51,205 nucleotides of DNA from IMG/VR virus record IMGVR_UViG_3300010403_000009, positions 1 through 51,205 of that record; one strand, 5' to 3'. A model generated the notes under the pieces. The model did no database searches. It was given only the letters and a program-made list of their open reading frames with translations, and was not told the origin of the DNA. The stretch's first letter is position 1, and the number at the start of each line of letters is the position of its first letter. The position numbers and the translations under genes were made by a program. This stretch comes from a virus. Taxonomy: Duplodnaviria; Caudoviricetes. This document shows, piece by piece, positions 27,544 to 42,728 of this stretch.

Positions 27544-28023
27544 TCAGCGTCGCTCAAGATAGCGGGCCGCAGCCCGCAGCAATGAGGGATCATCGCGGTA
27601 TGCGCCAAGGCCTGTGTTGCATCTTGCGCATAACAATCCGCGTACACATCGTGAGCAGCTCTTCGTGCCTGGGCAGCATGTATGGTCATGATCTAGCTGA
27701 GCGCCTTGCGGCTTCGGTCCACGGCCCACGCCTCGTGCCAGCGGGTCAAAGCCTTTGATTATCGGGTCATGGCAGATCGCGCAGCACCCTCTCTGTGAGG
27801 TGTATAGGCGCTCATATTCGTCGAGGGAGATGCCACGGGTCGCCTTCAAGTTAGTGGCGACCACTCCACGCCTGCCAACCGCAGTCGCACGCCTCAGGCG
27901 CTGGTAATCCCGCATATAGGTTGGACTCCGCGGGTCCAGCCCTGTCGCGACCTTCAGTGCGCGCGGAAGTGGTCCGATGAACTCCGCAGCGATCTCGGCA
28001 AGGCGCCGTTCCACGTACCGCAT
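27544..28023 (-). CDS. Endonuclease VII-family (beta-beta-alpha-metal) nuclease
   Basis: GISL.EY..L...Q.G.CAIC; LDHDH; VRGLLC..CNTGLG...DDP..LR.A..YL. Confidence 0.88.
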   Translation of the reverse strand: MRYVERRLAEIAAEFIGPLPRALKVATGLDPRSPTYMRDYQRLRRATAVGRRGVVATNLKATRGISLDEYERLYTSQRGCCAICHDPIIKGFDPLARGVGRGPKPQGAQLDHDHTCCPGTKSCSRCVRGLLCARCNTGLGAYRDDPSLLRAAARYLERR

Positions 28024-28187: not shown

Positions 28188-28484
28188 CTAGATCATCCTC
28201 GATATCACGCTGAATCGATGTCCCTGCAGCACCCAGCTAGTCGGTGTCAGTAGCGCTGAGCCGGGCAGTGTCCAGTACGACACACCGCGCCAGTGATCCC
28301 ACAACCATGCGATGAACTCACGCGAGATGCCCTCTTCGGCTGCACAAAGGGTCTGCGGCTGGTCATCCTTATCCTTCAGCATCTGGGCTGCCCACTTGAA
28401 CGACTCCTGACTGAGGTCCGCCGGCGTGGGCAGTTCAAGCACGGCGCGTATGCGTGGCTCTGGGATGTCCTCAACGCGTGTCAT
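28188..28484 (-). CDS. Hypothetical protein
   Basis: ATGA-coupled to the upstream gene. Confidence 0.6.
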   Translation of the reverse strand: MTRVEDIPEPRIRAVLELPTPADLSQESFKWAAQMLKDKDDQPQTLCAAEEGISREFIAWLWDHWRGVSYWTLPGSALLTPTSWVLQGHRFSVISRMI

Positions 28485-29725
28485 AGCTCATCCGTCGTTA
28501 CTGTCTCGGTGATGAATCGATCTGCCTGTTCAGGTCGTGTGCTTGACCTTGCGTGCTCTGGCCGGCCTCTCACGAAGTCCTGTGGATGGCGATATTCGAA
28601 TGAGCGGGGCCGGACCTTCAGGCCATCCCATTGCATCACCAGTTCTCCGGGCTTCACCCGGAAGCCTGTGCGGTCACAGATCTCATAGTTGACCGGGACA
28701 TCGGACGTGGCATTCGGGTTCTGCGGACCATCGGTGACGGCATCCCGGATGAGAGGCGGGGGCGCAATGCCGAAGGCGCTGACATTCGAGCTGGCAAGGC
28801 CGGTGAAGCTCGCTGTGGCGATCAACAGGCCATTGACAGTCACCGTAATCGAAGCTGAGCCTGCCCCTGAGACAGGGACGATGCTTGAGCCATCGCCGAT
28901 GACCTGGATGAGCGCTGTTCCGGGGGCGGCAGCCGTCGAGCTCCCCATGCCGCTTGCGATGACCGTGCAGGGCGCATCGCCCGTGCCACTGGCTCTTGAG
29001 GTCGTCGTGCCCTGAACGGTGGCCGTGATCGTCGCACTGCCCACACCATTGCTGAACAGGAAGCCTGCGGTGGCGCCCTGCCCGTCGACGATGGCGCCTG
29101 CGGTTGCAGCACCTGCCGCACTCGTGGTGATGACATTCGCACCGCTGCCACTGGCGGTGACGGTGATCGTCGCCACACCCGGGATGGCGTGGATGTTGGT
29201 GGTGGCCCCGAGTGCGGTGACCGTGACATTCGAGGCGCCAACTCCGCCCCCCACATAGGCCGTGGCATTGAGAGCAATCCCCAGTTGCTCGGTGAGCCGG
29301 AAACTGAAATTCGTGAAGTCCGAGAGATTGAGGGCGAGCCCCAGCGTCTCACCCACGCCCCAGAAGCGATTGATGATGGCGGTCTTGTCGGCCGGTGCCT
29401 GGTATCGGGCCGGACCCACAAATCCCAGTCGCGTCCTGCGGACCAGCTGGAAGGTAGTTGCTGTGACCGTAATCGTGGCGGAGCCGGCCGCGCCATTCGT
29501 CGAGCCCCCCGCCCCGGCAATGTTCGACTGGGCGAGCGCAAAGCCTGCGCTTCTCGCGATCGAAGCGCCCACCCCCGCAACTGTCGCACTGGCCGTGGCC
29601 GTGCCCGCCGTCTGCGAACTGCCGGCGACCGCAATGACCGTGATTGCGGCCGCGCCTGCTGCCGAGCGAATGATCCCCTGATAGGGGGCGGGCCCAATGA
29701 AGCCAAGACGGGTCTTACGGGCCAT
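28481..29725 (-). CDS. Ala/Gly/Thr repeat virion protein with C-terminal CDR..GF...WDGL.V...RHPQDFVRG domain
   Basis: About 12 G.A.I.V.A.G-type repeats; two TRLGF.GPA.YQ motifs. Confidence 0.8.
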   Translation of the reverse strand: MARKTRLGFIGPAPYQGIIRSAAGAAAITVIAVAGSSQTAGTATASATVAGVGASIARSAGFALAQSNIAGAGGSTNGAAGSATITVTATTFQLVRRTRLGFVGPARYQAPADKTAIINRFWGVGETLGLALNLSDFTNFSFRLTEQLGIALNATAYVGGGVGASNVTVTALGATTNIHAIPGVATITVTASGSGANVITTSAAGAATAGAIVDGQGATAGFLFSNGVGSATITATVQGTTTSRASGTGDAPCTVIASGMGSSTAAAPGTALIQVIGDGSSIVPVSGAGSASITVTVNGLLIATASFTGLASSNVSAFGIAPPPLIRDAVTDGPQNPNATSDVPVNYEICDRTGFRVKPGELVMQWDGLKVRPRSFEYRHPQDFVRGRPEHARSSTRPEQADRFITETVTTDEL

Positions 29726-29846
29726 TCAGATCACGCAGCGCGTCTTTGCGAATCCTCCCCTTGCCGACGGCTGAGGCTATCCCCTGGGCATCCGGAACCG
29801 CCGTGCGCCGGAAGAATCCGCAGAGCCATCCCATGAACCGCTTCAT
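29715..29846 (-). CDS. Small hypothetical protein (43 aa, not in ORF track)
   Basis: Fills the gap exactly; MKRFMGWLCGFF...AQGIASAVG. Confidence 0.45.
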   Translation of the reverse strand: MKRFMGWLCGFFRRTAVPDAQGIASAVGKGRIRKDALRDLNGP

Positions 29847-29847
29847 A

Positions 29848-30276
29848 TCAGTCGAAGGTGATCGTCGTCGACGTCGTCAGACGTGGCGTGACTCCAGAGC
29901 TCACACTGATGTTCGGCGTGAGCGTGCCGGAGACCAGCACTTTACCCGTACCGCTCGAGGCCGTCCCCACCGCGAAATGAGTCAGTGTCGCGCTGCCGCC
30001 GGTACATTGTGGGGCATCCACATTCGCAACGGGGCTTACGACATTCGAGCTTACCGTCCAGCCGCCTGAAGTTCGGGCGACCGCGGTACGCGCATAGCTC
30101 GTATAGCTCGTCTCATTCGTGGTCTGCGTGCCCGAGTCCCCCGGATCTGAGGTGTGAAAGCTCACATACAGACTCGTGAGCGGCGAGCTTGCCGCGTTGT
30201 CTGCAATGTTCGCAATCGCGGTCGCCTGAAAGATCAACTTTGCGAGATCGTTTTCGAAGGTGTCGCCCAGACTCAT
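29848..30276 (-). CDS. Small beta-rich fibre/minor virion subunit
   Basis: LYVSFHT.DPG, NE.SY.SYAR.AV, THFAVG...SG.G..L..G.L. Confidence 0.8.
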   Translation of the reverse strand: MSLGDTFENDLAKLIFQATAIANIADNAASSPLTSLYVSFHTSDPGDSGTQTTNETSYTSYARTAVARTSGGWTVSSNVVSPVANVDAPQCTGGSATLTHFAVGTASSGTGKVLVSGTLTPNISVSSGVTPRLTTSTTITFD

Positions 30277-30295
30277 TTCACGGTCCTCAGAAACG

Positions 30296-30318
30296 AAAAA
30301 ACCGGCATAAGGCCGGTT
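30296..30318 (-). terminator. Intrinsic terminator
   Basis: AACCGGC-CTTAT-GCCGGTTTTTT on the minus strand. Confidence 0.8.
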
Positions 30319-30340
30319 GATTCAGAAGTGGTTGGAAGGA

Positions 30341-30721
30341 TCAGGCAGCAGTGGCTACAGCGGTAACCGTGACGGTCCATTGCTCGGAAGAGGTCTTCAG
30401 AGGTAAGGCAATGACTTTGCGGGTGGCCATGTAGTCCCCGCTGCCTGAATTGAATAGCGCAATCTCGAGCCACGTATAATTCGCCTCGGCGGTGGTGAAC
30501 GTCGAGGTGTAATCAATCGAGTTCGAGGTGCGCAGGGGCGCAGAATCCAGCGCCTTTCTCAACTTGTTCGTACTCGCCTGCAGATCCGTCTGGCTCGCCG
30601 CGAAGACCGCGCTGCTGTCACCCACCCCGATCCGGGCATTCGTGAGATTGAATGGCGCGACCAGTCCATCGCCACAGAATAGAGAGGCGATTGCAATCGC
30701 GCCCTTATCGGTCGTTGCCAT
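30341..30721 (-). CDS. Small beta-rich fibre/collar-like subunit
   Basis: IGVGDS....A.QTDL, F...EAN..W.E.ALFN, RKV...KTS. Confidence 0.78.
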   Translation of the reverse strand: MATTDKGAIAIASLFCGDGLVAPFNLTNARIGVGDSSAVFAASQTDLQASTNKLRKALDSAPLRTSNSIDYTSTFTTAEANYTWLEIALFNSGSGDYMATRKVIALPLKTSSEQWTVTVTAVATAA

Positions 30722-30857
30722 CGTGCTCTTCGGTGAAGTCGTATATGCGCTCTTCGATCAACTCGCCTTCTGCGGTACGACGCACGAGTTTCACGCGCGT
30801 GATCTCGGTCTTGAGCTCCCCAGCGGGGGCCTCAGACGACGATGCCGGTGTCTGCAT
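30705..30857 (-). CDS. Small protein (50 aa), possible detached N-terminal hairpin of the next gene
   Basis: VKLVRRTAEGELIEER beta-hairpin; overlaps both neighbours. Confidence 0.5.
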   Translation of the reverse strand: MQTPASSSEAPAGELKTEITRVKLVRRTAEGELIEERIYDFTEEHDGNDR

Positions 30858-31890
30858 TGGAGGGCGCCGAGGTTTGTGTGCTGATGGTGAATCGGCCGCG
30901 ACCACTCACGAGGCTGTAGGCCGAGATCGAGCCACGCTGACCGGTCAGAGTGCCGGTCGTCCAGTACCACTCCCGGCCCAGATAATGATCGGCCGCCGCA
31001 GTCGTGATATCGCTGCATTCAAACTGTGTGGTCGTGGGCGTCAGGCCCGCAGTGGTGACTGTGCCGGGGATAAACTCATTCGCGGCCAGAGCCTGTCTCA
31101 CGGCCGCCGCTGAGCTGCTATTGATCTGCTTGACATTGGCCGGGGCATCACCCGAGACCAATGCATTGGGCGCGACACGCAGCCAGGCTTCGAGTGTTAC
31201 CCCCGCAGGCAGAGTTGCAAATACAGTGTCGGAAGATGGATTCGTGACCCACGCCGGGACCACTGTCGCCACCTTGGTAGTGCCATTGTAGGCCGTGACG
31301 ATACGGCCATTCTGGCCTGCGCCAGTGCCTGCAAGAGTCGCAACACTGCTGCCAACAAAGAAATCAGTCGTCGCACTGGCGCTCGCATCGAACGTGATGC
31401 TGTTGGCACCTCCAGCCTGTGCCGTGTTGATACGGCCATAGCCACGCGCATCGACGACGGGAACACCTGCAGTGTTGACTGTGGCGGCTGCCGTTCCTTT
31501 CCAGTTCACGACATTCACGCCAAGTTGCGCCGTCGTCGTATCGACCGTCGTGCCCGCGACGGACTGCAGGTCCACCTTGATATCGCCCGATTCCTGCGGA
31601 TAGATCAAAAGGCTGCGGGTCACTGCGTTCGTGGTCGAACTTTTGATCTGCACCACCACTGAGTCTGCATTCATTTCCGTCGAGGTGAGATCCAGATAGT
31701 AGTGGCCTGAACTCGTCGCAATCTCTGTCGCCTCATTAGTGCAGTCTGCCATCGTGCCGGCGTCCTTCGATACTTCTGAGTCGAGCCCAGCGGCGCCCGT
31801 ATTCAGCGCGCCCGTGTTCAGGCGCAAATCGAAATAGGCACGAAATGCCGTATTCTTGATCGGGACGGGCTTGGCGTCTGTGCTAGCCAT
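30832..31890 (-). CDS. Virion protein: Ig-like N-domain plus two repeated beta domains
   Basis: SKD.G, G.YYL.LT..EMN; duplicated D.F/Y.G......GT..GQ...I.AY units. Confidence 0.78.
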   Translation of the reverse strand: MASTDAKPVPIKNTAFRAYFDLRLNTGALNTGAAGLDSEVSKDAGTMADCTNEATEIATSSGHYYLDLTSTEMNADSVVVQIKSSTTNAVTRSLLIYPQESGDIKVDLQSVAGTTVDTTTAQLGVNVVNWKGTAAATVNTAGVPVVDARGYGRINTAQAGGANSITFDASASATTDFFVGSSVATLAGTGAGQNGRIVTAYNGTTKVATVVPAWVTNPSSDTVFATLPAGVTLEAWLRVAPNALVSGDAPANVKQINSSSAAAVRQALAANEFIPGTVTTAGLTPTTTQFECSDITTAAADHYLGREWYWTTGTLTGQRGSISAYSLVSGRGRFTISTQTSAPSNADTGIVV

Positions 31891-31908
31891 GAAATAGTTG
31901 CTCCGGGA

Positions 31909-32586
31909 TCAGCCAAAACTGAAGAATGGATTGCCCAGCACGGTTGCCTGCTGATTGAGTACACCTGGATCGACGGAGGCTCCCGCAGTAACGTTGCCCG
32001 CTTCCCAGTCGTCCCCGCGAAGCAATGCAGATGCAATGAGTCCGCAGATGCCGGGCTTGCCGGTCGTCAGGATCGACGAACTATCACTGCGAGTTCCGAG
32101 TGATACGCCGTTCTTGTAGATCGTGAACGTGACCGTCGTACTGACCGTGGTCGCTTCACATTCGAGCGTGTCACCACTGGCAAAGGTGGTATTGAGCTGC
32201 GCACCGATCGCCGTCACCGTCCCGTTGACGATCTTCTCGACCACGATGCCGGCAGTCCCGGTGCTGTCGAAAAAGTAGATCCGGTAGGCAGAGAACGAGC
32301 CGAATGCGCCACCATTATTGAGCAGTGAACCGCCAATCTTGTCGTTCGAACTGAACGAGCCAAGAATCTTGAGGCTGAAATACTGATCGACGGTGAAAGA
32401 GCCGGCGCCCTTCCATGAACAGTCGGCCATATTTCCGAATGCGTTCTGAAACCCATTCGTCGCGATGCGCAGCTGGCCGTTGCTGGCGTTCTGCTCGACC
32501 CAGTCTCCACTCGAATTGAGCACACTAACGTTCGTGCCGTCTGCCGCAGTGAATGGATAGGCAGAGACGACGACGGTGCGGGTCAT
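31909..32586 (-). CDS. Beta-sandwich (ConA/lectin-like) protein
   Basis: F..ADG, DQY, Y......I.K.VNG, GD.L, YKNG, G.PG, DDWEAG pattern. Confidence 0.7.
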   Translation of the reverse strand: MTRTVVVSAYPFTAADGTNVSVLNSSGDWVEQNASNGQLRIATNGFQNAFGNMADCSWKGAGSFTVDQYFSLKILGSFSSNDKIGGSLLNNGGAFGSFSAYRIYFFDSTGTAGIVVEKIVNGTVTAIGAQLNTTFASGDTLECEATTVSTTVTFTIYKNGVSLGTRSDSSSILTTGKPGICGLIASALLRGDDWEAGNVTAGASVDPGVLNQQATVLGNPFFSFG

Positions 32587-32590
32587 GATT

Positions 32591-33667
32591 TCAGAACACG
32601 GTTAGTGGAGGCTTGAACACAGAAGCGGTACAAGAGCCATCAGCAGAGGTCTGGCGCCACATCGCATAGCAGTCGTAGTCAGAGACATATCCGACGAAGA
32701 TCGTATTGATCGATGGCGAGCCGGCCGCCGGAGCGGTTACGCCGAGCGAGGCCCATGAATCGGCCGCGCTGTTGTAAGTCCACATGCCGCCACCGGGAAC
32801 AATCAGCAGAGGTCGGCGGATCAATCCATTCGTGTCCGAACGCGTGGAGACATCGGCATCAACGACAATGCCGCCGGTTGCGCTCGAGGTCGGAATCTGA
32901 ACCTGCGCGGGCAGGTTGTTCTTGTTGACCACACTGCCGGTCGCGGGAATCTGCACCAGCGCCAACGCACTGAAGTTATTGCCACCACACATGTAGGAAT
33001 TGGTGGAGGCAATGTCATAGAAGCCGTTCGAGAAGTCGGCAACCTGAATGCCGCCCGAGCCGAATCCGGGCCAGCGCGTTGACCATGAATTCGCAGCCAC
33101 ATCCCACTGCGTGATGCCATACGTGCTGCCGCTGAGAACTACCCCCTGCGTGCCCACTGTCGGGTTGAAGGCCATGCCCGGGAGCTGCGCGTGCCCGCCC
33201 TGCGGGTCATCGCCACTGACGAGAGACCATGCCTTGGTAGCGGCAGGCCGGTAGTACAGCCTGAACGAGGAGCCATTGCCGTAGGGCTCGTGAAAAAAGA
33301 GCTTGCCGCGTGCCGGATCATGCGTTTGCAGACTGAACTGATGCATGTCGCTCAGGCCCGCCGCGATCGGCACCGCATCCGTATTGCGCCATGCGTTCGA
33401 ACTGTCGCTGAAGTTCAGCATCAGGCTCTGACGGCCGTTATGGCCGTGGCCGTAGTAAGCGATCTCCCTGTTGATCTTGTCCCACGCGAACTTGATGCCG
33501 TTCGAGGTGACGGGATCAAGACCCGCAGGATTGCAGACGCTGCCCGGCAGAAAGCCGCCGGCCCAGTCCTGCCAGGTGTTCACAGACATCGTCGCCACCC
33601 GCGTGGCGAGTGACGAGGTTGGCGCGGCAGCCACCGTGAACGTGATTGCCCTGTCTGCGTACTGCAT
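32591..33667 (-). CDS. Beta-propeller (Kelch-like) protein
   Basis: Repeated Y/W-D/N...N.W blade ends (FSDSSNAW, WDVAANSW, YNSAADSW). Confidence 0.7.
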   Translation of the reverse strand: MQYADRAITFTVAAAPTSSLATRVATMSVNTWQDWAGGFLPGSVCNPAGLDPVTSNGIKFAWDKINREIAYYGHGHNGRQSLMLNFSDSSNAWRNTDAVPIAAGLSDMHQFSLQTHDPARGKLFFHEPYGNGSSFRLYYRPAATKAWSLVSGDDPQGGHAQLPGMAFNPTVGTQGVVLSGSTYGITQWDVAANSWSTRWPGFGSGGIQVADFSNGFYDIASTNSYMCGGNNFSALALVQIPATGSVVNKNNLPAQVQIPTSSATGGIVVDADVSTRSDTNGLIRRPLLIVPGGGMWTYNSAADSWASLGVTAPAAGSPSINTIFVGYVSDYDCYAMWRQTSADGSCTASVFKPPLTVF

Positions 33668-35496
33668 CAGCCGGGCGTCACTGTGAAGCCACCCGGGAAC
33701 GGAATCGGCTGTGTTCCCGTCAGCACTTCGTCATAACAGGTGAACGTGTCATAGCCAACGCCGGGAGACTTTCCGGTCTGATATGGCAGAAGCCAGATCG
33801 CATTGTGGCCACCATTTGCAGTTCCCAGCTTGATGTTGCCGATGTAGCTGTGCATCTTTTTGGGCGCCTGCCCAGAGACAGCGCACCATGACTCGTAGGT
33901 GCTGCTGGCCGTTCCCAGCGTTCCGATCTTGTTGCGGACCATGAACGTCATGTAGACGTCCGGGACGTACTTGGCGCCTCCGTTCTGGGCGTGAGGCGTG
34001 CCGGTGTAAGTCGGCATCGAATACATCGGGCCCCAACGGGCCCACGCAGTGGGACAGTTCGTAACTGCTCCACCGTTGTCGATCGCATTCTGAAATCGGA
34101 AGTCTGAGCTGTTGCAGGCGCTTGACCATGCCTGCGAGAACTGCACGAAGCTTGAGCCATCCTGGTAGTACGCCAGAGGACAGCCCATCTGAAAGCTGTT
34201 CTCCATGACAACTTCGTTGTTCTGATTGCTCGCACTGAAGTGGGAGCAGATCAGCTGCTTGAATCCGTTCGAATGAATGCCGTCGCCGATGCCGGGCGTT
34301 CCCGGAAAGAGACCATTGCAGAACGCCGCAGGCAGATACTGCGACCACTGAACGTAGTATTCGCTGTTATTGCCAAACAGCGTCTGCGCAGGACTGATGT
34401 AGAGACGTATCCCGCCAGAGGACGTGCTATCCGCATTCAGAATGTTGAATCGTGCGGAACCCACACCACTGCGTCGGATGTTCGGCTCGAATACAACATG
34501 ATTCGCCTGAGCATCCTGCAGTGTATTCGCCTGAACATCTGCAAGGCTCGTGAATCGGACTGCGCGCAGAATTCCGGCAGAAGCCGAACGCGCTTCGAAA
34601 TCCACCTCGTTCGCGAGCTGCTCGGCATCGAAGATGCGAATCGTTGGCGAAGTCGTTGTGCCCGGTGCGCTTGCGGTGGTGCCGATCACATGCAAAGCTG
34701 ACAACGAATGACCGCTCAGAAGTGCACCGGATACCACCCGCGCACCTGCTGCACCCGTGGTCAGCGAGGCCAGATTCAGGTCGTAAGCAACGTTCTGCTG
34801 AGGGGACTGGGTTGGCGTACTTGCGCCATTCCATGCCACTGCCCCGGCGGCCCCGGAGGTCGACAACGACTGTGAGGGGCTATAGTTACCGAGGTTACCG
34901 GCGTTGTCCTTCGCGCGAACCCGATATGAATAACTGGTCGATGAGATCAGGCCCGTATCGGCGTAGCTGATCGTCGCAACGTCCTGCGCAATGATCTGCC
35001 CGTTGCGCTCTACATCATAGCCCTTCAGTCCCGAGCCACCGGTGTCCGTTGAGGCCGTCCACGTCAGCGTGATGCTGGTGGTCGTCGCAGACACCAGCGT
35101 CGGGGTTCCGGGAACGCCCGGCGCGGTCTGGTCAGGAGTCGTTGCGCTCGCCGAAGAACTTAACGCACTTGGATTTCCGGCGCCATCGATAGCCAGTACC
35201 TTGTAGAACCATGTCTGGCTCCCCGCAACCGTCGTGTCATCGAATTGCGGCAGCAGGGATGAACTCAGAAATGTATAACTGCCGCCGCTTGTCGCTGAGC
35301 GATAGATGGCGTAACTGCCGATGCCCGACTGCGAATCAGACGAAGCTGACCACACCAGCCGGATCGTGCTCTGGGAAAATCCGCTCGCAACGAGATTGAC
35401 CGGGATCGAGGGCGCCGTGACATCCGGGGTAAAGATCGTGCGCGCCAGCGTGCTCACCTGCAGGTCCCACGGGGCCAGAGGCTGCGCCACATTCAA
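33667..35496 (-). CDS. Fn3 x2 + partial Ig + jelly-roll (lectin/polysaccharide-lyase-like) protein
   Basis: Two canonical Fn3 (P..P.NL..I.L.W..S.D..G...Y; Y.V.A.D.AGN.S); C-terminal YYVQW, GFKQ, YDEV.....I. Confidence 0.82.
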   Translation of the reverse strand: MNVAQPLAPWDLQVSTLARTIFTPDVTAPSIPVNLVASGFSQSTIRLVWSASSDSQSGIGSYAIYRSATSGGSYTFLSSSLLPQFDDTTVAGSQTWFYKVLAIDGAGNPSALSSSASATTPDQTAPGVPGTPTLVSATTTSITLTWTASTDTGGSGLKGYDVERNGQIIAQDVATISYADTGLISSTSYSYRVRAKDNAGNLGNYSPSQSLSTSGAAGAVAWNGASTPTQSPQQNVAYDLNLASLTTGAAGARVVSGALLSGHSLSALHVIGTTASAPGTTTSPTIRIFDAEQLANEVDFEARSASAGILRAVRFTSLADVQANTLQDAQANHVVFEPNIRRSGVGSARFNILNADSTSSGGIRLYISPAQTLFGNNSEYYVQWSQYLPAAFCNGLFPGTPGIGDGIHSNGFKQLICSHFSASNQNNEVVMENSFQMGCPLAYYQDGSSFVQFSQAWSSACNSSDFRFQNAIDNGGAVTNCPTAWARWGPMYSMPTYTGTPHAQNGGAKYVPDVYMTFMVRNKIGTLGTASSTYESWCAVSGQAPKKMHSYIGNIKLGTANGGHNAIWLLPYQTGKSPGVGYDTFTCYDEVLTGTQPIPFPGGFTVTPG

Positions 35497-35542
35497 TGCC
35501 GCTTACAGATGCCGAGTTTCGGAAAGCGACGGCAGAGCCACT

Positions 35543-35863
35543 TCAGGATACCGTCAGGCCAAAAGGGTCGGCAGGGACCCTCGCATCCACATCGAAGGCA
35601 GGGCCCGTTACGAGACCCGATTTCGTGCCGTTGCTTGCCGCTACTCTCACCGCCCATGTATGGGTGGTATTCGAAAGCGTGCCGAGTGTTGCGACCGGGA
35701 AGTTGTACTGCCCGTTCTGCGCCCACGCGACCGGAATTGATACCGCCGCCTTGCCGTCGAGCGACAATTCTGTTCCGATGTACTGAGCCGCGCCAAGCGC
35801 GCTGCCGTCGGTGAACTTGTTGGCGTGCTGCCAACTCAGGGTCGTCGGATTCATCACATTCAT
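35543..35863 (-). CDS. Single Fn3-like domain protein, apparently permuted
   Basis: Starts at TLSW...TDGS, has WAVRV...NG.KS, and ends PADPFGLTVS. Confidence 0.75.
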   Translation of the reverse strand: MNVMNPTTLSWQHANKFTDGSALGAAQYIGTELSLDGKAAVSIPVAWAQNGQYNFPVATLGTLSNTTHTWAVRVAASNGTKSGLVTGPAFDVDARVPADPFGLTVS

Positions 35864-35865
35864 GT

Positions 35866-37926
35866 CTATACTTCCAGGAAGCGGCGGAGGGTTATTGACC
35901 GGCGGTGGGTTTCCACCGCCGGCGGGGGGACGAAAGGGGGGGGCGGCTCGGCCTCCAGGCCGAGCGAGAGCGAAAGACTGATCGCACTTCCAACCGTCAC
36001 AATCGAACCTGCCACGGGTGTCTGCGCAAACACGAGCCCGAGTGTCAAGGCATTCGCAAGACTGCTCGTTGCGCCCAGCGCAAAACCTGCCGCGAGCAGC
36101 TCTGCAGTCGCCTCCTCCAACGTTTCGCCCACGACATCCGGCACCGTTGCGGTAGGCGTAGGGTCGATCTGGACAAAAACATCGAAGCTGAAAAGATTGC
36201 TGCTCGCTGAGCCGAATGAATTCGTGCCGATGATTGCGAGTGAGCCATAGACTGCGCTGGCCGTCGGCGTTCCGGTCACGACCCCGGTGGATGGATCGAT
36301 GCCAATGCCCGGTGGTGCGCCGTTCAGTGTGTATGTGGTGACAAACTGGAACAGCGGCGAGGCATCATAGGGCACCATCGCGACATTGATCTCATTCGAG
36401 AAGTCGCTGATCAGCCCTGCAAAGGTCGGGGCGTTCGGCGGATCTTCAACGATGATGATGAACGGATCAGACTCGTCATACGAGTTCTCGGAGTCGGTTC
36501 TCCGGATCGTATACGGGCCGTAGGTGCCAGAGGTATCCGGCGTGCCTGTCATCGCGCCCGTCCCACTATCGAGCGCAAGGCCTGACGGGATCGTCGGGCT
36601 GATCGTGTAGGTGCCGCTACCCGAATCCTGATCGACGAACAGCGCCCCGTAACTCTGGGTCGCAATCGCCACGTTCCGCACAAACGTCACATCGGCAATG
36701 TTGGGGCCGATGAAATCCGGGAACAGACCGCGAAGGTCCCATGTGTACCACGAGGACCAAACGCTGCCGTTGTGCCAGCGCCATTGCATCGTGGTGGCGG
36801 TGTCATCCCAGCTCAATCGTCCATCAGCATCAACCGTAATCGTTCCAGATCCAGCCGTACGCTTGTATTCAATCTGGACCGCGCCGGTGATATCCGGGGA
36901 ACTGTAGAGTCGTGTTGGCCTGTTGCGCGAGTCGAAGGTGAGTGCACGAAGGCCCCCAATATCGACGTAGGAGGTTCCAGAGGGTGGCGTGAAGGTCACC
37001 GTCTTGATGGCCGCGGCCCCTGTTCCGGTCGTCACCTGAACCGTCTTGCTGCCGTTACGGATGTTTCCCTGAGTGATGTCGACCTGTATCGAGGTCGCCG
37101 CCCACGAGTCGACCGACAGACTCTGCGTCAGCAGGCCATCGATGAGCAGGACGCCACCGGTTCCCTGTGCAGCACCAAAGGTCGTGCCGGTGATGACGAC
37201 ATTCGCCTGAGTGGAGGTGATGACGTTGTCGCCATCGACATCCGTGATTGCCGGGGCGGTTGACGTCGAGCTCTTGAGCGCAATCAGCACGCCCTGACAG
37301 TTGCCCGAATTATCCGCAATGCTGATCGTTTGTGAGCTGATCGCAATCGCTGTGTGGGCGGTCTGCTGCTGATAGCCGGCCCAGACAGCAAGCGTGGTCC
37401 CCGCTCCAACGAGCGAACCCAACGCCGTGAATCCGGACAATGCGGCAATCGTTGCGCCATTCGACAGCGCGGTCTTGCGATGCATGCCGAAGGCCAAGAC
37501 CCACGCGTTGTCCAGTGAAGGCGTGAGCGAGGGATACGGAATCTGATTCGTGTTGCTGGAAGCTCGAGACCGCGCCTCCCCGCTGACCACGAGCGTTGCA
37601 TCCGTCGTATAGACATCACCCTGAAGCAGGATGACGACGGCGTAACAGTCGACACCCCACACTATGGTGGGCGGAACGGTATCGCCGGCAGCCACGATCT
37701 TGGTGTAGACCGCGATATTGGGTGCGGAGACGTTGTCGTCGATCTCGGTCCAGCCCGCAGGCACCGAAGGTCGGCTCGAGCCGCCATAGCTCGTCGTTGC
37801 ATATACGGCGCGGGTCGTCGTCGACGCCATCGAACTCGAGACCCAGCCGGCAGGCCATGACGGGGAGATCGTTCCACCCGAGGCGTGAGCCACCGTACCG
37901 ACGCCGTAGATCGTGTAGGCGCCCAT
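35866..37926 (-). CDS. Multidomain virion protein: IPT/TIG + two Ig (He_PIG-like) + PASTA
   Basis: P.IT...V.ITGT.FG..QG..W..T.I; two P.G...D..TG..TGTP repeats; VPDVVG.TLEEA...L..AGF...Q.P.AG..V..G..I.L..S.G. Confidence 0.82.
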   Translation of the reverse strand: MGAYTIYGVGTVAHASGGTISPSWPAGWVSSSMASTTTRAVYATTSYGGSSRPSVPAGWTEIDDNVSAPNIAVYTKIVAAGDTVPPTIVWGVDCYAVVILLQGDVYTTDATLVVSGEARSRASSNTNQIPYPSLTPSLDNAWVLAFGMHRKTALSNGATIAALSGFTALGSLVGAGTTLAVWAGYQQQTAHTAIAISSQTISIADNSGNCQGVLIALKSSTSTAPAITDVDGDNVITSTQANVVITGTTFGAAQGTGGVLLIDGLLTQSLSVDSWAATSIQVDITQGNIRNGSKTVQVTTGTGAAAIKTVTFTPPSGTSYVDIGGLRALTFDSRNRPTRLYSSPDITGAVQIEYKRTAGSGTITVDADGRLSWDDTATTMQWRWHNGSVWSSWYTWDLRGLFPDFIGPNIADVTFVRNVAIATQSYGALFVDQDSGSGTYTISPTIPSGLALDSGTGAMTGTPDTSGTYGPYTIRRTDSENSYDESDPFIIIVEDPPNAPTFAGLISDFSNEINVAMVPYDASPLFQFVTTYTLNGAPPGIGIDPSTGVVTGTPTASAVYGSLAIIGTNSFGSASSNLFSFDVFVQIDPTPTATVPDVVGETLEEATAELLAAGFALGATSSLANALTLGLVFAQTPVAGSIVTVGSAISLSLSLGLEAEPPPPFVPPPAVETHRRSITLRRFLEV

Positions 37927-39101
37927 CAGGCTGTAGTCCAGCTGCCTTCAGACGGGGTGCCGGTGTTCGTCGCTCCTGCCACCGCATGAATCGCCGCACG
38001 TTGCGCGGTCCACCGATGGGGATCGGATGAATTCGCGCCCGAGGGCAGATAGTCGTTGTACAGGTGCACGATGTGCCAGGCATGCATCGTCGTTCGTTCG
38101 TAGGCGATGTAGCCCGCCGGCAGCATCGTTCCGCAGCTGCCCTGAATCTCGGAACACCACGGCATGCGGTTACGAAGATCGGTGTACTTCACCTGCGTGG
38201 TGACGGCATCGACCTTGTTCAGACCGCGGAAGACGAGCGCCGTCGTGATCGTCTTTACGTTCGTCGGATAGTTCGAGGGCAAAGGTGTCGGCACCGCAGA
38301 GCCATCGTTCATGATCTCCGGATCTGGCCCCCCGACTGCCACCGCTCCGGTCGTACGCGCATGGTTCAGCAGGTCCGACATGTTGTCGTAGGTGCCAAGA
38401 AAGTTCGCCATGAAGCGCTGCATCGTCGTCGGCCATGCCGTGCGTGTGGCGGTCAGCAAGCGCTTGTACTGCGTGATCAGGCCCGAGACCGAAAGACCTG
38501 CCGAACCGGTCGTGGTCTCGCCCATTGGCGACCACATCTCGAACAGCGGATGGCTGTCGAACTTCGCCCCATATGCCTGTGAGAGCGCAATGAAGCGATC
38601 CATCACCGGCGCCGTGTCGAGCAGCGGGATCGAGGTCAGCGAGCCGGACCACGCAGATCCTGCTGGCGCCACCTTGATGTAGCCGTTACTGACCCAGTAC
38701 GAGGGATAGACATTCCCCGGAACGTTCCCGGTCGCTGTACCGAACGTCCGGTCGTAGTTGCAGAGGATCAGCCGCTTTGGAAATGTGAGCGAGGCGCACT
38801 TGTCGAGAATCGTCTGAACGATCTTGAAGCCGCCAGTGAAATCCCCCTGCGCTCCTTCCAGGTACCAGGGATACAGCATGATCTGTACGCCCTTGACCTC
38901 ATCATCCCCGCCGATCGAGTCGAGGATGGCAAAGGCTTTGGCCTGAAACGTCGCATCCCAGCGAGCGACCGACAGCGAGGGGTGGACGTAGTGCCCGGCG
39001 TGGAACTTGACCGCTGTGCTGACCCCGCCTGCGGGACAGGTTTCGCGTTGACCGGATACAGACAAGGCCTGAATGGCGTTCTGGCCGGTTCTGTCGGTCA
39101 T
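37926..39101 (-). CDS. Putative glycoside hydrolase (clan GH-A-like TIM barrel)
   Basis: GVQI...W.LE...G.F; AYGAKFD.HP.FE; candidate catalytic Glu in GETT and SEIQ; GGPDP. Confidence 0.7.
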   Translation of the reverse strand: MTDRTGQNAIQALSVSGQRETCPAGGVSTAVKFHAGHYVHPSLSVARWDATFQAKAFAILDSIGGDDEVKGVQIMLYPWYLEGAQGDFTGGFKIVQTILDKCASLTFPKRLILCNYDRTFGTATGNVPGNVYPSYWVSNGYIKVAPAGSAWSGSLTSIPLLDTAPVMDRFIALSQAYGAKFDSHPLFEMWSPMGETTTGSAGLSVSGLITQYKRLLTATRTAWPTTMQRFMANFLGTYDNMSDLLNHARTTGAVAVGGPDPEIMNDGSAVPTPLPSNYPTNVKTITTALVFRGLNKVDAVTTQVKYTDLRNRMPWCSEIQGSCGTMLPAGYIAYERTTMHAWHIVHLYNDYLPSGANSSDPHRWTAQRAAIHAVAGATNTGTPSEGSWTTA

Positions 39102-39112
39102 GAAGCTCCAAT

Positions 39113-39137
39113 AAAAAAGCCCGCACGAGGCGGGCTT
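39113..39137 (-). terminator. Late-operon terminator (tR'-like)
   Basis: AAGCCCGC-CTCGT-GCGGGCTTTTTT between Q and the first late gene. Confidence 0.85.
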
Positions 39138-39250
39138 GAGGATGATCGCGGGTGTCTAGCGATCGATGAGATCAATCCGCAGACCGAAACCTGCGGAGGA
39201 ATTTCGGGCGCAACTTGTCCGGCGCAGTTAACTACCAACTGAAAATAGCT

Positions 39251-39730
39251 TCAAACTTTCCGCTCAGCTTTCACGAGTTCCGAATACCAGACATCGATCA
39301 GCAGACGCGAGCGATGCAGGTGGGCTTTCATGCTGGCAACTGACATATGCTCATCCTTCGCCATGACCTCCATCGGCGCCCAGTTCGTGTAGTAGCGTTT
39401 GATGCAGCGCTGGCCTTTCTTCCAGAGCTTCAGCCAGCAGGCCTCGATATGCTCGGACTGCAATGACAGGCTGACCGGCGGGCGCCCTGCCTGGATCGCA
39501 CCCGAAGGCCCCTGCTCGATCACACGACCCAGCAACGTATTGGGCGGCAGCGAGCCCGCATCCCGCTCCCTGACCTCCTTTCCCCATTGCTCAAGCAGTG
39601 AGTGGATGAACTTCGTGGCCGGGTCCATGCGGTTCATGGCGCGCGGATCACGTTCGACCACAGTATTGCCGCTTGGGAAGCGCGGGACAGGAATGGACAG
39701 GATGTCACCAGCGACAGGCAGTGCGTTCAA
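39251..39730 (-). CDS. Q: Late antiterminator Q-like protein
   Basis: LLEQWG motif and C-terminal HTH-like segment; last early gene before a strong terminator; start uncertain. Confidence 0.65.
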   Translation of the reverse strand: MNALPVAGDILSIPVPRFPSGNTVVERDPRAMNRMDPATKFIHSLLEQWGKEVRERDAGSLPPNTLLGRVIEQGPSGAIQAGRPPVSLSLQSEHIEACWLKLWKKGQRCIKRYYTNWAPMEVMAKDEHMSVASMKAHLHRSRLLIDVWYSELVKAERKV

Positions 39731-39794
39731 GATGGACTCCCCGGATGTGCTTCATTAATTGGTTGAGGCGTAAAGCAAATAGTGATGAAACTGG

Positions 39795-40127
39795 TCACGG
39801 CAAAGTGACCTTGAAATACTGCATATCGCTGAATGTACCCGGCGGACTGAAACCTGCGATCGGTACGATGGCTCCAATCGCGCGCAGCGCTTCATCAGGC
39901 GTCTTGCAGAGCTTCACGCCCCAGATCCTGAAGTTCTCGAGCTGAGCGGGATCACGCTTGCGGTTCTTCGTCACACCATCGCAATCGATCAGGAAGTACT
40001 TTTCTCCGAAACGAACGAGCAGATCGCAGGGGCGGCCGATGGGCCAGACATCCGCCCCTCGTGCCCGGAGAGCTTTGACGATGGCATCTGATGTACCGTC
40101 CTTGCGGTGGGTGCGGTGGCGGCTCAC
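39795..40127 (-). CDS. VRR-NUC/PD-(D/E)xK-like nuclease, possibly degenerate
   Basis: R.D.....IV.ALR..GA.V....P.DLLV...; Q..F..W; the usual E.K is replaced by DCD. Confidence 0.6.
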   Translation of the reverse strand: MSRHRTHRKDGTSDAIVKALRARGADVWPIGRPCDLLVRFGEKYFLIDCDGVTKNRKRDPAQLENFRIWGVKLCKTPDEALRAIGAIVPIAGFSPPGTFSDMQYFKVTLP

Positions 40128-40465
40128 CGGTTCGCCTCAATCAGCATCTCAGCCTCCGCTCTCGTCGCCACGCACCCTAGGTTCGTCGGCGGGTCGCCTC
40201 GCTTCCACGCGGTGTAACTCACCGAGTTCTCCGAGGCGTCTTTGGAGATCGAGTAAGCCCCACACGCTGTTAGAACGTACCCACTTCGTTTCCCAGTCTT
40301 CACGGGCTCCAGCCACTGAAGAGGCGGGAGTTCTGCCTTCGGCGTCGCCACTGCTACGGACGGTTTTGAGTGTCTGGCTAACTTTTCCCACATCGTCTCC
40401 TGACTGACGTATTTCTCAGCCTTTCGCATCGGGCTGTATGGCGCCTGAGTCATCTTATGGCACAA
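40124..40465 (-). CDS. Hypothetical protein
   Basis: Overlaps the next start; exact start uncertain. Confidence 0.6.
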   Translation of the reverse strand: MCHKMTQAPYSPMRKAEKYVSQETMWEKLARHSKPSVAVATPKAELPPLQWLEPVKTGKRSGYVLTACGAYSISKDASENSVSYTAWKRGDPPTNLGCVATRAEAEMLIEANR

Positions 40466-40501
40466 TGCTTGCGATGTTAACGAACGCCATGTACCACCTG
40501 T

Positions 40502-40729
40502 TCACACTGCTGGCTCTGAATCCGGCGCTCGTGGAGCGATACCGCGGCCATCTGCCGTGCTCGTTTCTGGCAGCGCTGGGACTGGAAGACGATCAGTGCC
40601 GCGAATCCGAACCTCATGGATTTCCTCGGCTGGCGAACTAGCTCGCAACCAATACGGCGGATCGCAGCGGCACCCGAGTTGATGCTGGCAACCTGGCTGG
40701 ACTCGTTGAGGCTTGCGGTAAGCGTTCAT
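40502..40729 (-). CDS. Hypothetical protein
   Basis: ATGA overlap with the upstream ORF. Confidence 0.5.
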   Translation of the reverse strand: MNAYRKPQRVQPGCQHQLGCRCDPPYWLRASSPAEEIHEVRIRGTDRLPVPALPETSTADGRGIAPRAPDSEPAV

Positions 40730-41007
40730 CGGCTAACCCCTCGCATCCGTCCCAGCACCTCGGTACGTCCGCCTCCCATCGCACCCTCGGGCATGACTGG
40801 CGCGTTCGGATGCGTCAGTACGCGGTCGATCGGGACCGGCCCTCGGAGCCGCGTGATATCCGCGTCGAGTTCGTGGTGGACCTTCGAGTAGGCGCTCGCG
40901 AACTGCCCCCAGAAGTAGACCGAGGCAGCCGCATCAGCTCTCACGCTGGCCAGTTCGTCCTCAAGACGTTTGATCTCGGCGTGCAGAATCTCAGTTGGCG
41001 TGTCCAC
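40726..41007 (-). CDS. Hypothetical coiled-coil protein (93 aa)
   Basis: GGAG-N6-GTG at 41007; the longer ORF-track start at 41310 lacks an RBS. Confidence 0.55.
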   Translation of the reverse strand: MDTPTEILHAEIKRLEDELASVRADAAASVYFWGQFASAYSKVHHELDADITRLRGPVPIDRVLTHPNAPVMPEGAMGGGRTEVLGRMRGVSR

Positions 41008-41324
41008 AGATATCTCCGGGCATAACTCGGCCCCTTTCCCCCATGGATAGCCATTGAGGTACTCAGCTCCCCTGTGCTTTACGCACTCCCTCCACGAGGG
41101 ATTCCACATACGACCGGGGTGCAATTGGGACAGCAGAGCCCGGAATTCAGCCTGACCGCCTGAGGTTTCGACTGACTGCGTGTCGTGACACAGTGGCACC
41201 GCTACCTTTCCGGGGAACGACCCCTTGAAGTCCGAGCGAACTTGTTTCACAATTGAAACGTACTGCGACGTTCCCTGCGATCCCAAGACGGCCCGATGGA
41301 CTTCCACCACGGGCCGTTTTCATT
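41008..41324 (-). other. Structured, probably non-coding segment at the usual replication-gene position (candidate origin)
   Basis: Hairpins at 41288-41317, 41087-41101 and 41074-41086; G5A3G4 tract on the minus strand at 41031-41042. Confidence 0.45.
41225..41322 (+). ncRNA. Putative short antisense RNA unit (OOP/RNA I-like): promoter plus about 60 nt RNA
   Basis: TTGAAG(41225)-17 bp-CACAAT(41248), then hairpin ACGGCCCG/CGGGCCGT followed by TTTCATTT. Confidence 0.5.
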
Positions 41325-41600
41325 TCAGAGCTGCGCGAAATCAATACTCGTCTGTGACGTCACGGCGCTCGATACGCCGTAAACCAGCAGGTAGCGCGCA
41401 ACCCTCTTCCCGTCTCCGACATCCACCATTCGCGATCGGATGTCGTGCCCCGCCTTCTTCAGATCCCAGATACGAGCTCCCAGCCGGAAGCAGCCGAACA
41501 TGTCGAGCGCTTCAAGAGGCGTGAGGGTTCGTCCTGACCTGAGGTAAGCCAGGATCTGATTGCACTGAGTCGCGGCATTCGATGACGCGTCAGTGCTCAT
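41325..41600 (-). CDS. Winged HTH protein (HTH_39-like)
   Basis: Q...IL.YL..G..LT.LEA...FGC.RL.ARI.DLK..G..I; ATGA-coupled start 41600. Confidence 0.8.
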   Translation of the reverse strand: MSTDASSNAATQCNQILAYLRSGRTLTPLEALDMFGCFRLGARIWDLKKAGHDIRSRMVDVGDGKRVARYLLVYGVSSAVTSQTSIDFAQL

Positions 41601-41719
41601 CGAGAGAGCGATCCGGACGCCCATGAGGTTGGTGCGTCGCTGTGATACAGCAGCTCGGACGGATCGAAATTCGCCGGTCCACGTTTGTATGCGCGGGTCT
41701 GGTACGGAATCTTGCGCAC
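41597..41719 (-). CDS. Small hypothetical protein (40 aa)
   Basis: Overlapping stop/start on both sides. Confidence 0.4.
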   Translation of the reverse strand: MRKIPYQTRAYKRGPANFDPSELLYHSDAPTSWASGSLSR

Positions 41720-41880
41720 TAATTCGCCCTCGCCTTCGGAAACAGCGAACGCGAGAATGTGTCGCGTCTCGACCCGTTCAGTACCTTCGCTTCGAGCAGA
41801 CGATTTAACGGAAGACGGGACTTCGCCGTCTTATGACGGGTCTCGTGCAGCATTTCGGTTTTCTCTGGCACAGTGCGCAT
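41719..41880 (-). CDS. Small basic hypothetical protein (53 aa, cII position)
   Basis: Directly after cro; coupled to the next ORF. Confidence 0.35.
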   Translation of the reverse strand: MRTVPEKTEMLHETRHKTAKSRLPLNRLLEAKVLNGSRRDTFSRSLFPKARAN

Positions 41881-41892
41881 AAGAAAAACGAA

Positions 41893-42114
41893 TTAGGCGG
41901 AGAGCGCTGAATCGCGCTTCGCAAATCCGCGCTTCTTGATCGGTAGCTTGGAAGCCTTGAACTTCCCTTTGCTCAGAACCTCGATCTGGAACGCCCGGTT
42001 TTCAGGGATCAGTCCGTCATCCCACTGCGAGATTGCCTGGGTGGTGCACTCGAGTGCCGCCGCCAGACCGGAGATGCCACCGAAGTGTTTAATGACGTCG
42101 CTGAGCTGATGCAT
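41893..42114 (-). CDS. cro: Cro-like repressor
   Basis: VIKHFGG...LA.AL..T.QAISQW....IP..RA.QIE.LS.GK.K; divergent from cI. Confidence 0.88.
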   Translation of the reverse strand: MHQLSDVIKHFGGISGLAAALECTTQAISQWDDGLIPENRAFQIEVLSKGKFKASKLPIKKRGFAKRDSALSA

Positions 42115-42121
42115 GCCCCCG

Positions 42122-42192
42122 AGCGTAAATCTACTTACTATTTTCGTCAAGTCGCCTTACTCACACCCGCCCGCAAGCGTAAGTACACTTAC
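42122..42192. promoter_or_regulatory. pR-like promoter and three operators
   Basis: Minus-strand TTGACG-17-TACGCT; GTAAG-N4-CTTAC-type palindromes at 42125-42138, 42147-42160 and 42179-42192 (the last is perfect). Confidence 0.8.
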
Positions 42193-42196
42193 AAAT

Positions 42197-42643
42197 GTGA
42201 CAGTAAAGAAAAAACGTGAGCGCGATCCCCGTGCGATCATTCGCGGGATCAAGATCAGGGAAGCCCGCATGGAGCGCGACCTATCGCAGGAAGCTGTTGC
42301 CAAGGCGTTGGCCCTAAAAAGTCGCGAGGCTGTCTCGCAATGGGAACGTGGCGACGTAGGCGAGCTCGAGCGAACCAACCGGCTCGGGCTATGCAAACTG
42401 CTTGGTTTTGAGGAACGCGAGCTACTATTGGACCCGGACAGCGCTCCCCCGGAGTTCGAAATGCCACTCAGTCGTGAGGCGAAGAGCGTTGCTTACAGGT
42501 GGGACGACCTGCCCGAGACTCTGCGCGGATGGCTCAAGCAACGGATGTCAGAAGCCGAAACAATGCAGCGCAAGTCACCAGGGCTCGCGAAGCATGTTTT
42601 CCCTGAATTAGACGACCCGCCGAAGCCAAAGAAAAAGCCCTAG
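42197..42643 (+). CDS. cI: CI-like XRE repressor lacking an S24 peptidase domain
   Basis: IREAR....LSQE.VA......EAVSQWERG HTH; short helical C-terminus; likely GTG start at 42197. Confidence 0.82.
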   Translation: MTVKKKRERDPRAIIRGIKIREARMERDLSQEAVAKALALKSREAVSQWERGDVGELERTNRLGLCKLLGFEERELLLDPDSAPPEFEMPLSREAKSVAYRWDDLPETLRGWLKQRMSEAETMQRKSPGLAKHVFPELDDPPKPKKKP

Positions 42644-42689
42644 TGCACCGCGTCATAGGGAACGGTTTCACCTTTTTGCGCCATCGAAC

Positions 42690-42728
42690 GTAAGCGCACT
42701 TGACATCCGGCGTAAGCCGATTTACGCT
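42690..42728 (+). promoter_or_regulatory. pL-like promoter and two operators
   Basis: TTGACA(42700)-17-TACGCT(42723); operators GTAAGCGCACTTGA (42690) and GTAAGCCGATTTAC (42712). Confidence 0.82.

Follow-up and report, generated by a model that had tools for sequence, protein, structure and literature searches.

An intrinsic terminator facing the pR operon at the O/P position of a soil lambdoid phage genome without recognisable replication proteins

The 317-bp stretch at positions 41008–41324 of a soil phage genome raises the question of what stands at the O/P position of a lambdoid phage in which no replication protein can be recognised. The DNA studied, referred to here as the window, is one whole IMG/VR virus record of 51,205 bp, and the sample was a soil metagenome. 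The record is complete, with direct terminal repeats of 123 bp and a CheckV completeness of 100%, as had been supposed in the original prediction, which was made from the sequence alone. The window is a complete lambdoid phage genome, and its gene layout mirrors that of lambda. The original prediction took the stretch for a gap of about 315 bp containing a ColE1-like, RNA-primed origin under the control of an antisense RNA. The distance itself was correct, since 317 bp separate the end of an HTH_39 winged-helix gene (41325) from the start of the next conserved gene (41007). The stretch is not simply intergenic, since a reading frame is open over 41008–41310. The features of the locus are as follows.

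41286–41325, + strand: intrinsic terminator facing the pR operon (bulged hairpin 41286–41319, T-rich tail 41317–41325)
41225–41253, + strand: candidate sigma-70-like promoter TTGAAG-17-CACAAT, weak (8/12 consensus match)
41260–41322, + strand: putative antisense RNA of about 60–65 nt, both ends predicted
41244–41259: 16-bp palindrome GTTTCACAATTGAAAC, overlapping the candidate −10 element
41325–41624, − strand: HTH_39 winged-helix gene, 99 amino acids (aa), in the cII position (Pfam PF14090, 65 bits against a cut-off of 21.3, E 5.7e-18)
40726–41310, − strand: open reading frame (ORF) containing the 317-bp stretch and the conserved 93-aa gene
41008–41310, − strand: 101-codon open frame, continuous with the downstream gene and without homologues
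40726–41007, − strand: conserved small protein gene (orf93), 93 aa, predicted coiled coil, with a GTG start at 41007 and GGAG at 41014–41017, six bases upstream
41031–41042, − strand (pR-sense): G tract GGGGGAAAGGGG, 24–35 nt upstream of GTG 41007

An antisense terminator beside the HTH_39 gene

The best explanation of the locus, to which we give about an even chance, is an antisense unit resembling OOP/pO of lambda and placed downstream of the HTH_39 gene. A weak + strand promoter at 41225–41253 would start an RNA of about 60–65 nt, which would end at the very strong terminator abutting the HTH_39 stop codon, and the unit would be transcribed head-on against pR. It may lower the expression of the genes beyond HTH_39, either through pairing of the RNA with the pR transcript or through polymerase collision, and the terminator would keep antisense transcripts out of the HTH_39-cro-cI region. 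The remaining 280 nt or so would be lineage-specific sequence with an open frame running into the 93-aa gene. We infer the promoter, the RNA and the regulatory effect of this unit.

The terminator is present, is oriented against the pR operon and recurs in related phages. Its bulged stem has 13 pairs and is followed by TTTTCATTT on the + strand; its folding energy (dG) is −20.9 kcal/mol, and in our own scan it ranks first among the 30 terminator-like sites of the genome. The 69-nt antisense RNA 41258–41326 folds with a z-score of −3.18, only 1 of 200 shuffles being as stable. This rank and this z-score confirm the terminator-like hairpin that had been expected about 60 nt beyond the promoter-like site. 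The terminator extends one base into the complement of the HTH_39 stop codon. On the − strand the stem is not followed by a U tract, and therefore the hairpin terminates antisense transcription only.

The candidate promoter is the only 8/12 site in 41000–41330 on either strand, and a stricter 9/12 scan does not list it. It lies about 60 nt upstream of the terminator, and a promoter-like 8/12 site is found 60–90 nt upstream of the corresponding terminator in the relative G005. The predicted RNA folds into one stable stem-loop and one marginal one.

Two further sequence patterns were considered here. The palindrome GTTTCACAATTGAAAC has one exact copy in the window, and allowing up to 2 mismatches gives 2 matches where 1.22 would be expected. 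An 18-nt terminator-flank pattern was tried as a family and rejected: it matched 18 viral stretches, in about 15 of which a GC-rich hairpin followed, with roughly 10 chance matches estimated, and we take these for generic terminators.

The recurrence of the terminator is clearest in G005, a genome of 52,931 bp with terminal repeats, rated 100% complete. It shares virion genes with the window phage at 30–95% identity, most of them above 50%, together with the Q-like gene, orf110 (60%) and the HTH_39 gene (70%). An antisense terminator stands directly after the HTH_39 stop of G005 (rank 4 of 30 in its own genome), and the window's order of Cro-like gene, orf53, HTH_39 gene and opposite-strand terminator is kept. 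The gap that follows is 452 bp long, has stops in all frames and a flat GC content by codon position, and its RNA has no unusual degree of structure (z −1.32). Outside the terminator, the window stretch cannot be aligned with it. A second genome, G001 (41,425 bp, terminal repeats, completeness estimate 45%), carries different virion genes. Its early region nevertheless keeps the order: a zinc-ribbon-like small ORF coupled to an orf93 homologue comes before an antisense terminator that ranks first of 22, and the homologues of orf109 and orf110 lie beyond a gap of 254 bp.

Among HTH_39 loci in general, the three clear cases of such a terminator (G005, the L002/L040 group and the L004 group) are the closest distinct loci, with 70, 60 and 56% identity, respectively. 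The L040 terminator was confirmed by a scan tool, and the stem sequences differ between relatives. In several phages a replication gene comes next after HTH_39: its product is an HTH_36 protein that matches DnaD_N weakly in L002 and L050, an HTH_36 protein under the cut-off in L049, a T7-type primase-helicase in L054, and Phg_2220_C in L065.

The likeness to lambda oop lies in position and form. The unit follows directly on the second regulator gene of the pR operon, is convergent with pR and, as predicted, would be short and end in an intrinsic terminator. In the L002 group, the order of regulator, antisense terminator and replication gene is that of cII, oop and O in lambda. The strength of the terminator and its recurrence in relatives make plausible a short convergent transcription unit placed like OOP, as put forward in the original prediction. 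However, there is no sequence or Rfam similarity to oop, the upstream gene matches HTH_39 and no CII family in Pfam, no O-like gene follows in the window phage, and the candidate promoter is weak. PMC3985674 describes lambda pO as driving a short antisense RNA against cII and as opposing pR near the origin.

Several observations weigh against an OOP-like unit. Of the 36 distinct HTH_39 loci compared, just 4 carry an antisense terminator no more than 90 nt from the HTH_39 stop, and one case is doubtful. The TTGAAG-17-CACAAT site was correctly placed in the original prediction, but an 8/12 match is common: the genome contains 57 of these sites (0.56 per kb per strand), and any given position has a 7% chance of lying 30–150 nt downstream of one. 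No such promoter-like site is present in L031 and L049. Lambda oop overlaps the 3′ coding end of cII, which is the basis of the RNase III-dependent control of cII; the RNA predicted here, by contrast, would not overlap the HTH_39 coding region and would end one base into the complement of the stop codon. The terminator could be an insulator only, without a dedicated small RNA. Finally, the open frame and its coding-like score mean that most of the stretch may be coding.

Coding potential of the stretch

We place the translation of some part of 41008–41310 somewhat below an even chance, and its coding statistics are ambiguous. Under a Markov null, a frame of this length is open with P = 0.085. 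The coding score is −0.041 per codon, against −0.25 ± 0.10 for random open frames, and 1.9% of random frames reach it; it is also reached by 10.7% of shadow ORFs and is below the scores of all 12 family-supported early genes (−0.016 to 0.31). Codons 11–60 are gene-like, with scores of 0.11–0.15, and codons 51–100 score −0.08 to −0.16. The GC content by codon position over the long ORF (0.66/0.48/0.69) follows a coding pattern. As for possible starts, GTG 41310 sits in the stem of the −20.9 kcal/mol hairpin and has no Shine-Dalgarno (SD) sequence, while the in-frame GTG 41199 has AAGG six bases upstream. An AlphaFold model of the 194-aa ORF made without an alignment was uninformative, with a predicted local distance difference test (pLDDT) score of 35.9.

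Homologues of the long ORF are confined to its conserved C-terminal part. An exhaustive search of 1.84 billion representatives returned 10 matches, all on residues 106–190, and a word-indexed search returned 2. Nine of the ten homologues are short (58–123 aa), and in six of these nine the match begins at the homologue's own residue 2–7; variable N-terminal extensions of 26–71 aa are present in 5 of 11 family members. The family of the 93-aa gene (P0001–P0012) thus shares the conserved core and, in those six short homologues, the start position too, whereas the reading frame of the window phage continues upstream of it for 101 codons without a stop. Neither Pfam nor PHROGs has a model for this family.

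For the N-terminal half, no homologue was found at E ≤ 0.1, nor any in the 1.84 billion representatives or in 5.8 billion clusters. Its best score in the ESM Atlas (0.84) is at chance level, the best E value in a tblastn search against 89 fetched records was 3.9, and no locus related to the long ORF was found in viral, genome or metagenome contigs. In public gene calls the protein is either 93 aa long (Logan/ENA) or 127 aa long with a start at 41109 (JGI); a protein of 194 aa is absent from the collection, and no call starts at 41310.

Replication genes and origin signals

As far as profiles can see, the window phage has no recognisable replication proteins, and the absence of an initiator, helicase, loader, primase, polymerase or single-stranded DNA-binding protein (SSB) noted in the original prediction holds. 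Pfam assigned a replication family to none of 50 window ORFs, and none of 40 ORF queries matched a PHROG with a replication function; the sole PHROG row under 'DNA, RNA and nucleotide metabolism' was the helix-turn-helix (HTH) entry 'DNA binding protein', on the Cro-like protein. Six-frame scans of the window matched none of six families (DnaB_C, Phage_rep_O, HTH_36, SSB, IstB/DnaC and Prim-Pol). The Walker-A pattern had 3 matches among all six-frame ORFs of at least 45 aa, none of them in the early genes. The family-library scans left out about 23 ORFs at 5.1–23.4 kb and 28.2–28.5 kb, mostly from the structural or lysis region, and most of the structural ones have homologues in the structural block of G005. 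Five large late-operon ORFs (391, 358, 352, 414 and 724 aa) have no family, and about 30 small early ORFs are orphans.

Partial checks of the two related genomes gave a similar picture. Six-frame scans of G005 for HTH_36, Phage_rep_O, IstB and Prim-Pol matched none of these families, and Pfam found only RecT among 10 early ORFs. The G001 genome had no match in six-frame scans for DnaB_C, Phage_rep_O, IstB and Prim-Pol, and one weak match below the threshold (15.4 bits) for HTH_36. No remnants of four initiators from other HTH_39 loci were detected by tblastn in the window, G001 or G005 (best E 0.17). A literature search for phages without replication genes, at the level of search results only, turned up no paper on point.

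Downstream of orf93 come a second gap and a pair of conserved genes.

40454–40725: second gap, 272 bp, between the 93-aa gene and orf109; its three − strand frames score −0.10 to −0.51 per codon
40124–40453, − strand: orf109
39795–40127, − strand: orf110

The orf109 and orf110 genes (39795–40453) overlap by 4 nt and are the only early genes common to the window phage, G005 and G001 (counterparts at L038 4606–5264 and L031 3708–4405). The orf109 family has 15 members, all unnamed or hypothetical, and the conserved N-terminus shared with G001 and G005 places the start of the gene at 40453. The orf109 model (pLDDT 79.4) consists of a four-stranded sheet and a C-terminal helix; a Foldseek comparison with the PDB gave no match at E ≤ 0.001 (best E 0.59). 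Sequence profile searches of the PDB found nothing significant, with best E values of 0.3 for orf110 and of 0.017 for orf109, the latter to dodecin, which we regard as irrelevant. A 'VRR-NUC-like' label, given to orf110 by eye, found no support from any tool and was dropped. Among the small conserved proteins, the orf109–orf110 pair is the best candidate for a cryptic replication function, and for these phages a cryptic initiator is more likely than a protein-free origin.

Two features were seen around the second gap: a + strand ORF of 67 codons in 40438–40725 with a borderline coding score (0.03), and the only 9/12 promoter-like site on the − strand in 39–43 kb, running from 40480 to 40452 and overlapping the orf109 start codon.

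Nothing at the locus marks an origin. The G tract GGGGGAAAGGGG is present at the place given in the original prediction, but it is only mildly unusual: it is one of 9 double G-runs in the genome, and G5 runs are fewer genome-wide than in shuffles (65 observed against 104 expected). The stretch holds 4 runs of G4 or longer on the sense strand against about one expected, an approximately fourfold enrichment, and the sense G-skew over 41008–41107 is 0.30. At the offset from the conserved start at which the G tract lies, the homologue P0001 has the residues G-K-G, and a coding or translation-linked role explains the placement of the tract no less well than hybrid formation does. The several hairpins formerly attributed to the sense strand were not borne out, since the pR-sense RNA 41008–41280 is no more stable than expected (z −0.37, equalled or bettered by 67 of 200 shuffles); with the terminal hairpin included, z is −1.49.

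Other origin signals gave no better support. No Rfam family, RNAI included, reached its gathering score in the whole window, and none had E ≤ 1 in 40400–42300. The stretch contains no direct repeats or iterons and no AT-rich unwinding element, and the AT-richest 40 nt are outside it, in the operator region 42175–42220. No DnaA box was found in 39–42.3 kb, the nearest being at 37310; with at most one mismatch, the window has 4 boxes against 5.05 expected. The GC-skew inflection proposed as a check is at 43–44 kb, where the minimum is confounded because the coding strand switches there; the skew follows the coding strand and locates no origin.

In a comparison with known RNA-primed systems, the analogy to ColE1 breaks down at each feature open to computational testing. 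The locus resembles ColE1 in that no own initiator is recognisable, a G-rich tract lies on the transcribed strand and a small antisense RNA is a candidate. ColE1 RNA I, however, is about 108 nt long, has three stem-loops and can pair with the 5′ end of a preprimer that is itself highly structured and controls hybrid formation by its folding. The candidate RNA would be about 60–65 nt long with one stable stem-loop, has no RNAI match, and would pair about 900 nt downstream of pR and not at a preprimer 5′ end; the sense RNA is not structured beyond chance, and no conservation of the stretch is seen in the close relative G005. The ColE1-like origin of the original prediction is therefore unsupported. 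At the R-loop origins ori(uvsY) and ori(34) of phage T4 and at the transcription-activated ori-lambda, early-promoter transcription runs through the origin region, as it would through the candidate region in the window. T4 and lambda encode their own replication proteins, and the window stretch differs from these origins in having no AT-rich unwinding element or iterons.

Repeats were observed in the corresponding gaps of the relatives. The G005 gap (L038 4156–4389) has three 13-nt direct repeats, 85% alike, with start-to-start spacings of 74 and 147 nt. In L031, the gap after the orf93 homologue contains a perfect 15-bp inverted repeat (3162–3265) whose arms are separated by 58 nt. A 10-nt repeat with a G6 run occurs there twice in exact form, 70 nt apart and each time just upstream of one arm, and a third G6 run is also present. 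An apparent abundance of TGAAA/GTGAA in the gaps of the three phages was a visual impression on which no claim is based. Short collinear matches of 13, 12 and 10 nt in L031 were considered as a conserved element and rejected, as global alignment gave scattered identity only.

Genomic setting, competing explanations and significance

Around the locus, the lambda-like order is completed by the following features.

42113–42643, + strand: CI-like repressor gene
41893–42150, − strand: Cro-like gene (Pfam P22_Cro, E 1.7e-18)
between the Cro-like and HTH_39 genes, − strand: 53-codon ORF (orf53)
39251–39730, − strand: 159-aa ORF, a putative Q-like antiterminator judged by sequence and position alone
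39117–39137: terminator before the late genes, which include those for the large terminase and the major capsid protein

The HTH_39 gene is the second or third gene after the Cro-like gene. HTH_39 was the sole Pfam match of its product, with no CII family reported; the protein matches phrog_4973, of unknown function, and is 70% identical to its G005 homologue. Other genes on the + strand encode small unknown proteins, ERF, YqaJ exonuclease, DUF1367, a methyltransferase, a Thg1-like protein, an excisionase-like HTH protein and two tyrosine recombinases. No N-like antiterminator was recognised in the window. A sense-strand terminator-like hairpin directly 3′ of the Cro-like gene (about 41880–41932, − strand, dG −18.1, tail from 41888) has a position like that of lambda tR1, and its G005 counterpart is the top-ranked − strand site at 12811 (dG −17.5).

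Elsewhere in the genome, a gene for a Thg1-like tRNA-His guanylyltransferase (1670–2680, + strand, Pfam Thg1 E 2e-23) is located in the early-left operon beside the excisionase-like and integrase genes; the phage carries no tRNA genes. The tyrosine recombinase genes are in tandem (2864–3847 and 4112–4945, + strand), the second being 59% identical to one of G005. The late operon (28481–39101, − strand) has about 11 kb between the Q-like gene and the terminase, with Ig-like, fn3 and PASTA-bearing proteins, and this region includes four of the large ORFs without a family (391, 358, 352 and 414 aa); the 724-aa ORF is just below the terminase. An endonuclease VII gene is present at 27544–28023.

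The best match of the capsid protein is 47% identical among cultured phages and 61% in any record, an uncultured phage. A distant blastn search of 39200–42700 against 50,697 phage records gave no DNA match. Contigs from two other metagenome runs match 41762–42700, the cro/cI immunity region, at 80–99% identity, with scattered short pieces elsewhere; they diverge at about 41762–41877, a mosaic boundary just upstream of the HTH_39 gene. The sequencing runs listed as matching include no RNA run, and the locus itself is covered by the probable source run alone.

Against this background, three other explanations of the locus and a broader proposal were weighed. The stretch might be mainly protein-coding, as an orphan N-terminal extension (a 194-, 158- or 127-aa form), possibly alongside a 93-aa form from the internal GTG, with the hairpin acting as an insulator and no small RNA. 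We regard this as doubtful. The 101 codons open in the frame of the downstream gene, a score above 98% of random open frames with gene-like codons 11–60, the GC pattern, the variable extensions in relatives, the 127-aa JGI call and the AAGG upstream of GTG 41199 would all be accounted for. The N-terminal half, however, has no homologue in any of the collections searched, its score is equalled by one shadow ORF in ten or so and exceeded by every family-supported early gene, codons 51–100 are negative, and GTG 41310 is in a stem without an SD sequence. Moreover, six of the nine short homologues start 2–7 residues before the conserved core, and at the same place in G005 the gap has stops in all frames and flat GC.

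It is improbable that the stretch is a recombination scar left by the loss or exchange of a replication module, with the phage relying on an unrecognised initiator (orf109–orf110 being the prime candidate), on recombination-dependent replication or on a helper. Consistent with a scar, a replication gene follows HTH_39 in L002, L050, L054 and L065 (under the cut-off in L049), the mosaic break is close by and relatives in other runs share only 41762–42700, orf93 belongs to a recombination operon in L032 and is absent from G005, orf109–orf110 are the sole common early genes, and the recombination genes ERF, YqaJ and endonuclease VII are present. Yet no initiator remnant was detected, orf109 matches no PDB fold and the PDB profiles are not significant, and three separate records with terminal repeats, two of them rated 100% complete, speak against phages that are simply defective. 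An origin that consists of cis elements and depends on the host appears most unlikely; here a lasting RNA-DNA hybrid of the pR transcript at the G-rich tract would prime DNA synthesis in the style of ColE1, T4 or mitochondria, with the antisense RNA as a throttle. The lack of replication families in the window and in the partial checks of G005 and G001, the gaps of 250–450 bp without a supported gene at the O/P position of all three phages, the sense-strand enrichment in G runs with its skew and the G6-containing repeats of L031 would agree with such an origin, as would the modulation of lambda replication by convergent promoters near the origin (PMC3985674). Against it stand the absence of an Rfam match, the unstructured sense RNA and G005 gap, gaps that share no alignable sequence beyond the terminator, the lack of direct repeats and DnaA boxes, the AT-richest segment being elsewhere, the deficit of G5 runs genome-wide and the position of the G tract 24–35 nt before a start codon, matched by the G-K-G of P0001; unassigned small proteins also remain candidate initiators. 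Very unlikely, too, is the broader proposal of a soil lambdoid lineage (the window phage, G005, and G001 with its different virion module) that has no replication protein of its own and would replicate from a fast-evolving, protein-poor cis region at the old O/P position; early transcription through DNA rich in G runs would produce an R-loop there, through which PriA or Pol I would bring in the host replisome, and an OOP-like convergent unit would set the firing rate.

If the OOP-like antisense unit is real, the lambda layout, in which an antisense RNA stands between a regulator gene and the replication region, holds also for unrelated HTH_39 regulators in soil phages, and this layout would be conserved without sequence homology. 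Three temperate phage genomes of 41–53 kb, each bounded by terminal repeats, show no recognisable initiator, helicase, loader, primase, polymerase or SSB, as judged for G005 and G001 by the partial checks. Either a new type of initiator is present among their few small conserved proteins, or they have an origin that depends on the host only; to our knowledge, either answer would add a type of replication module to those described for tailed phages.

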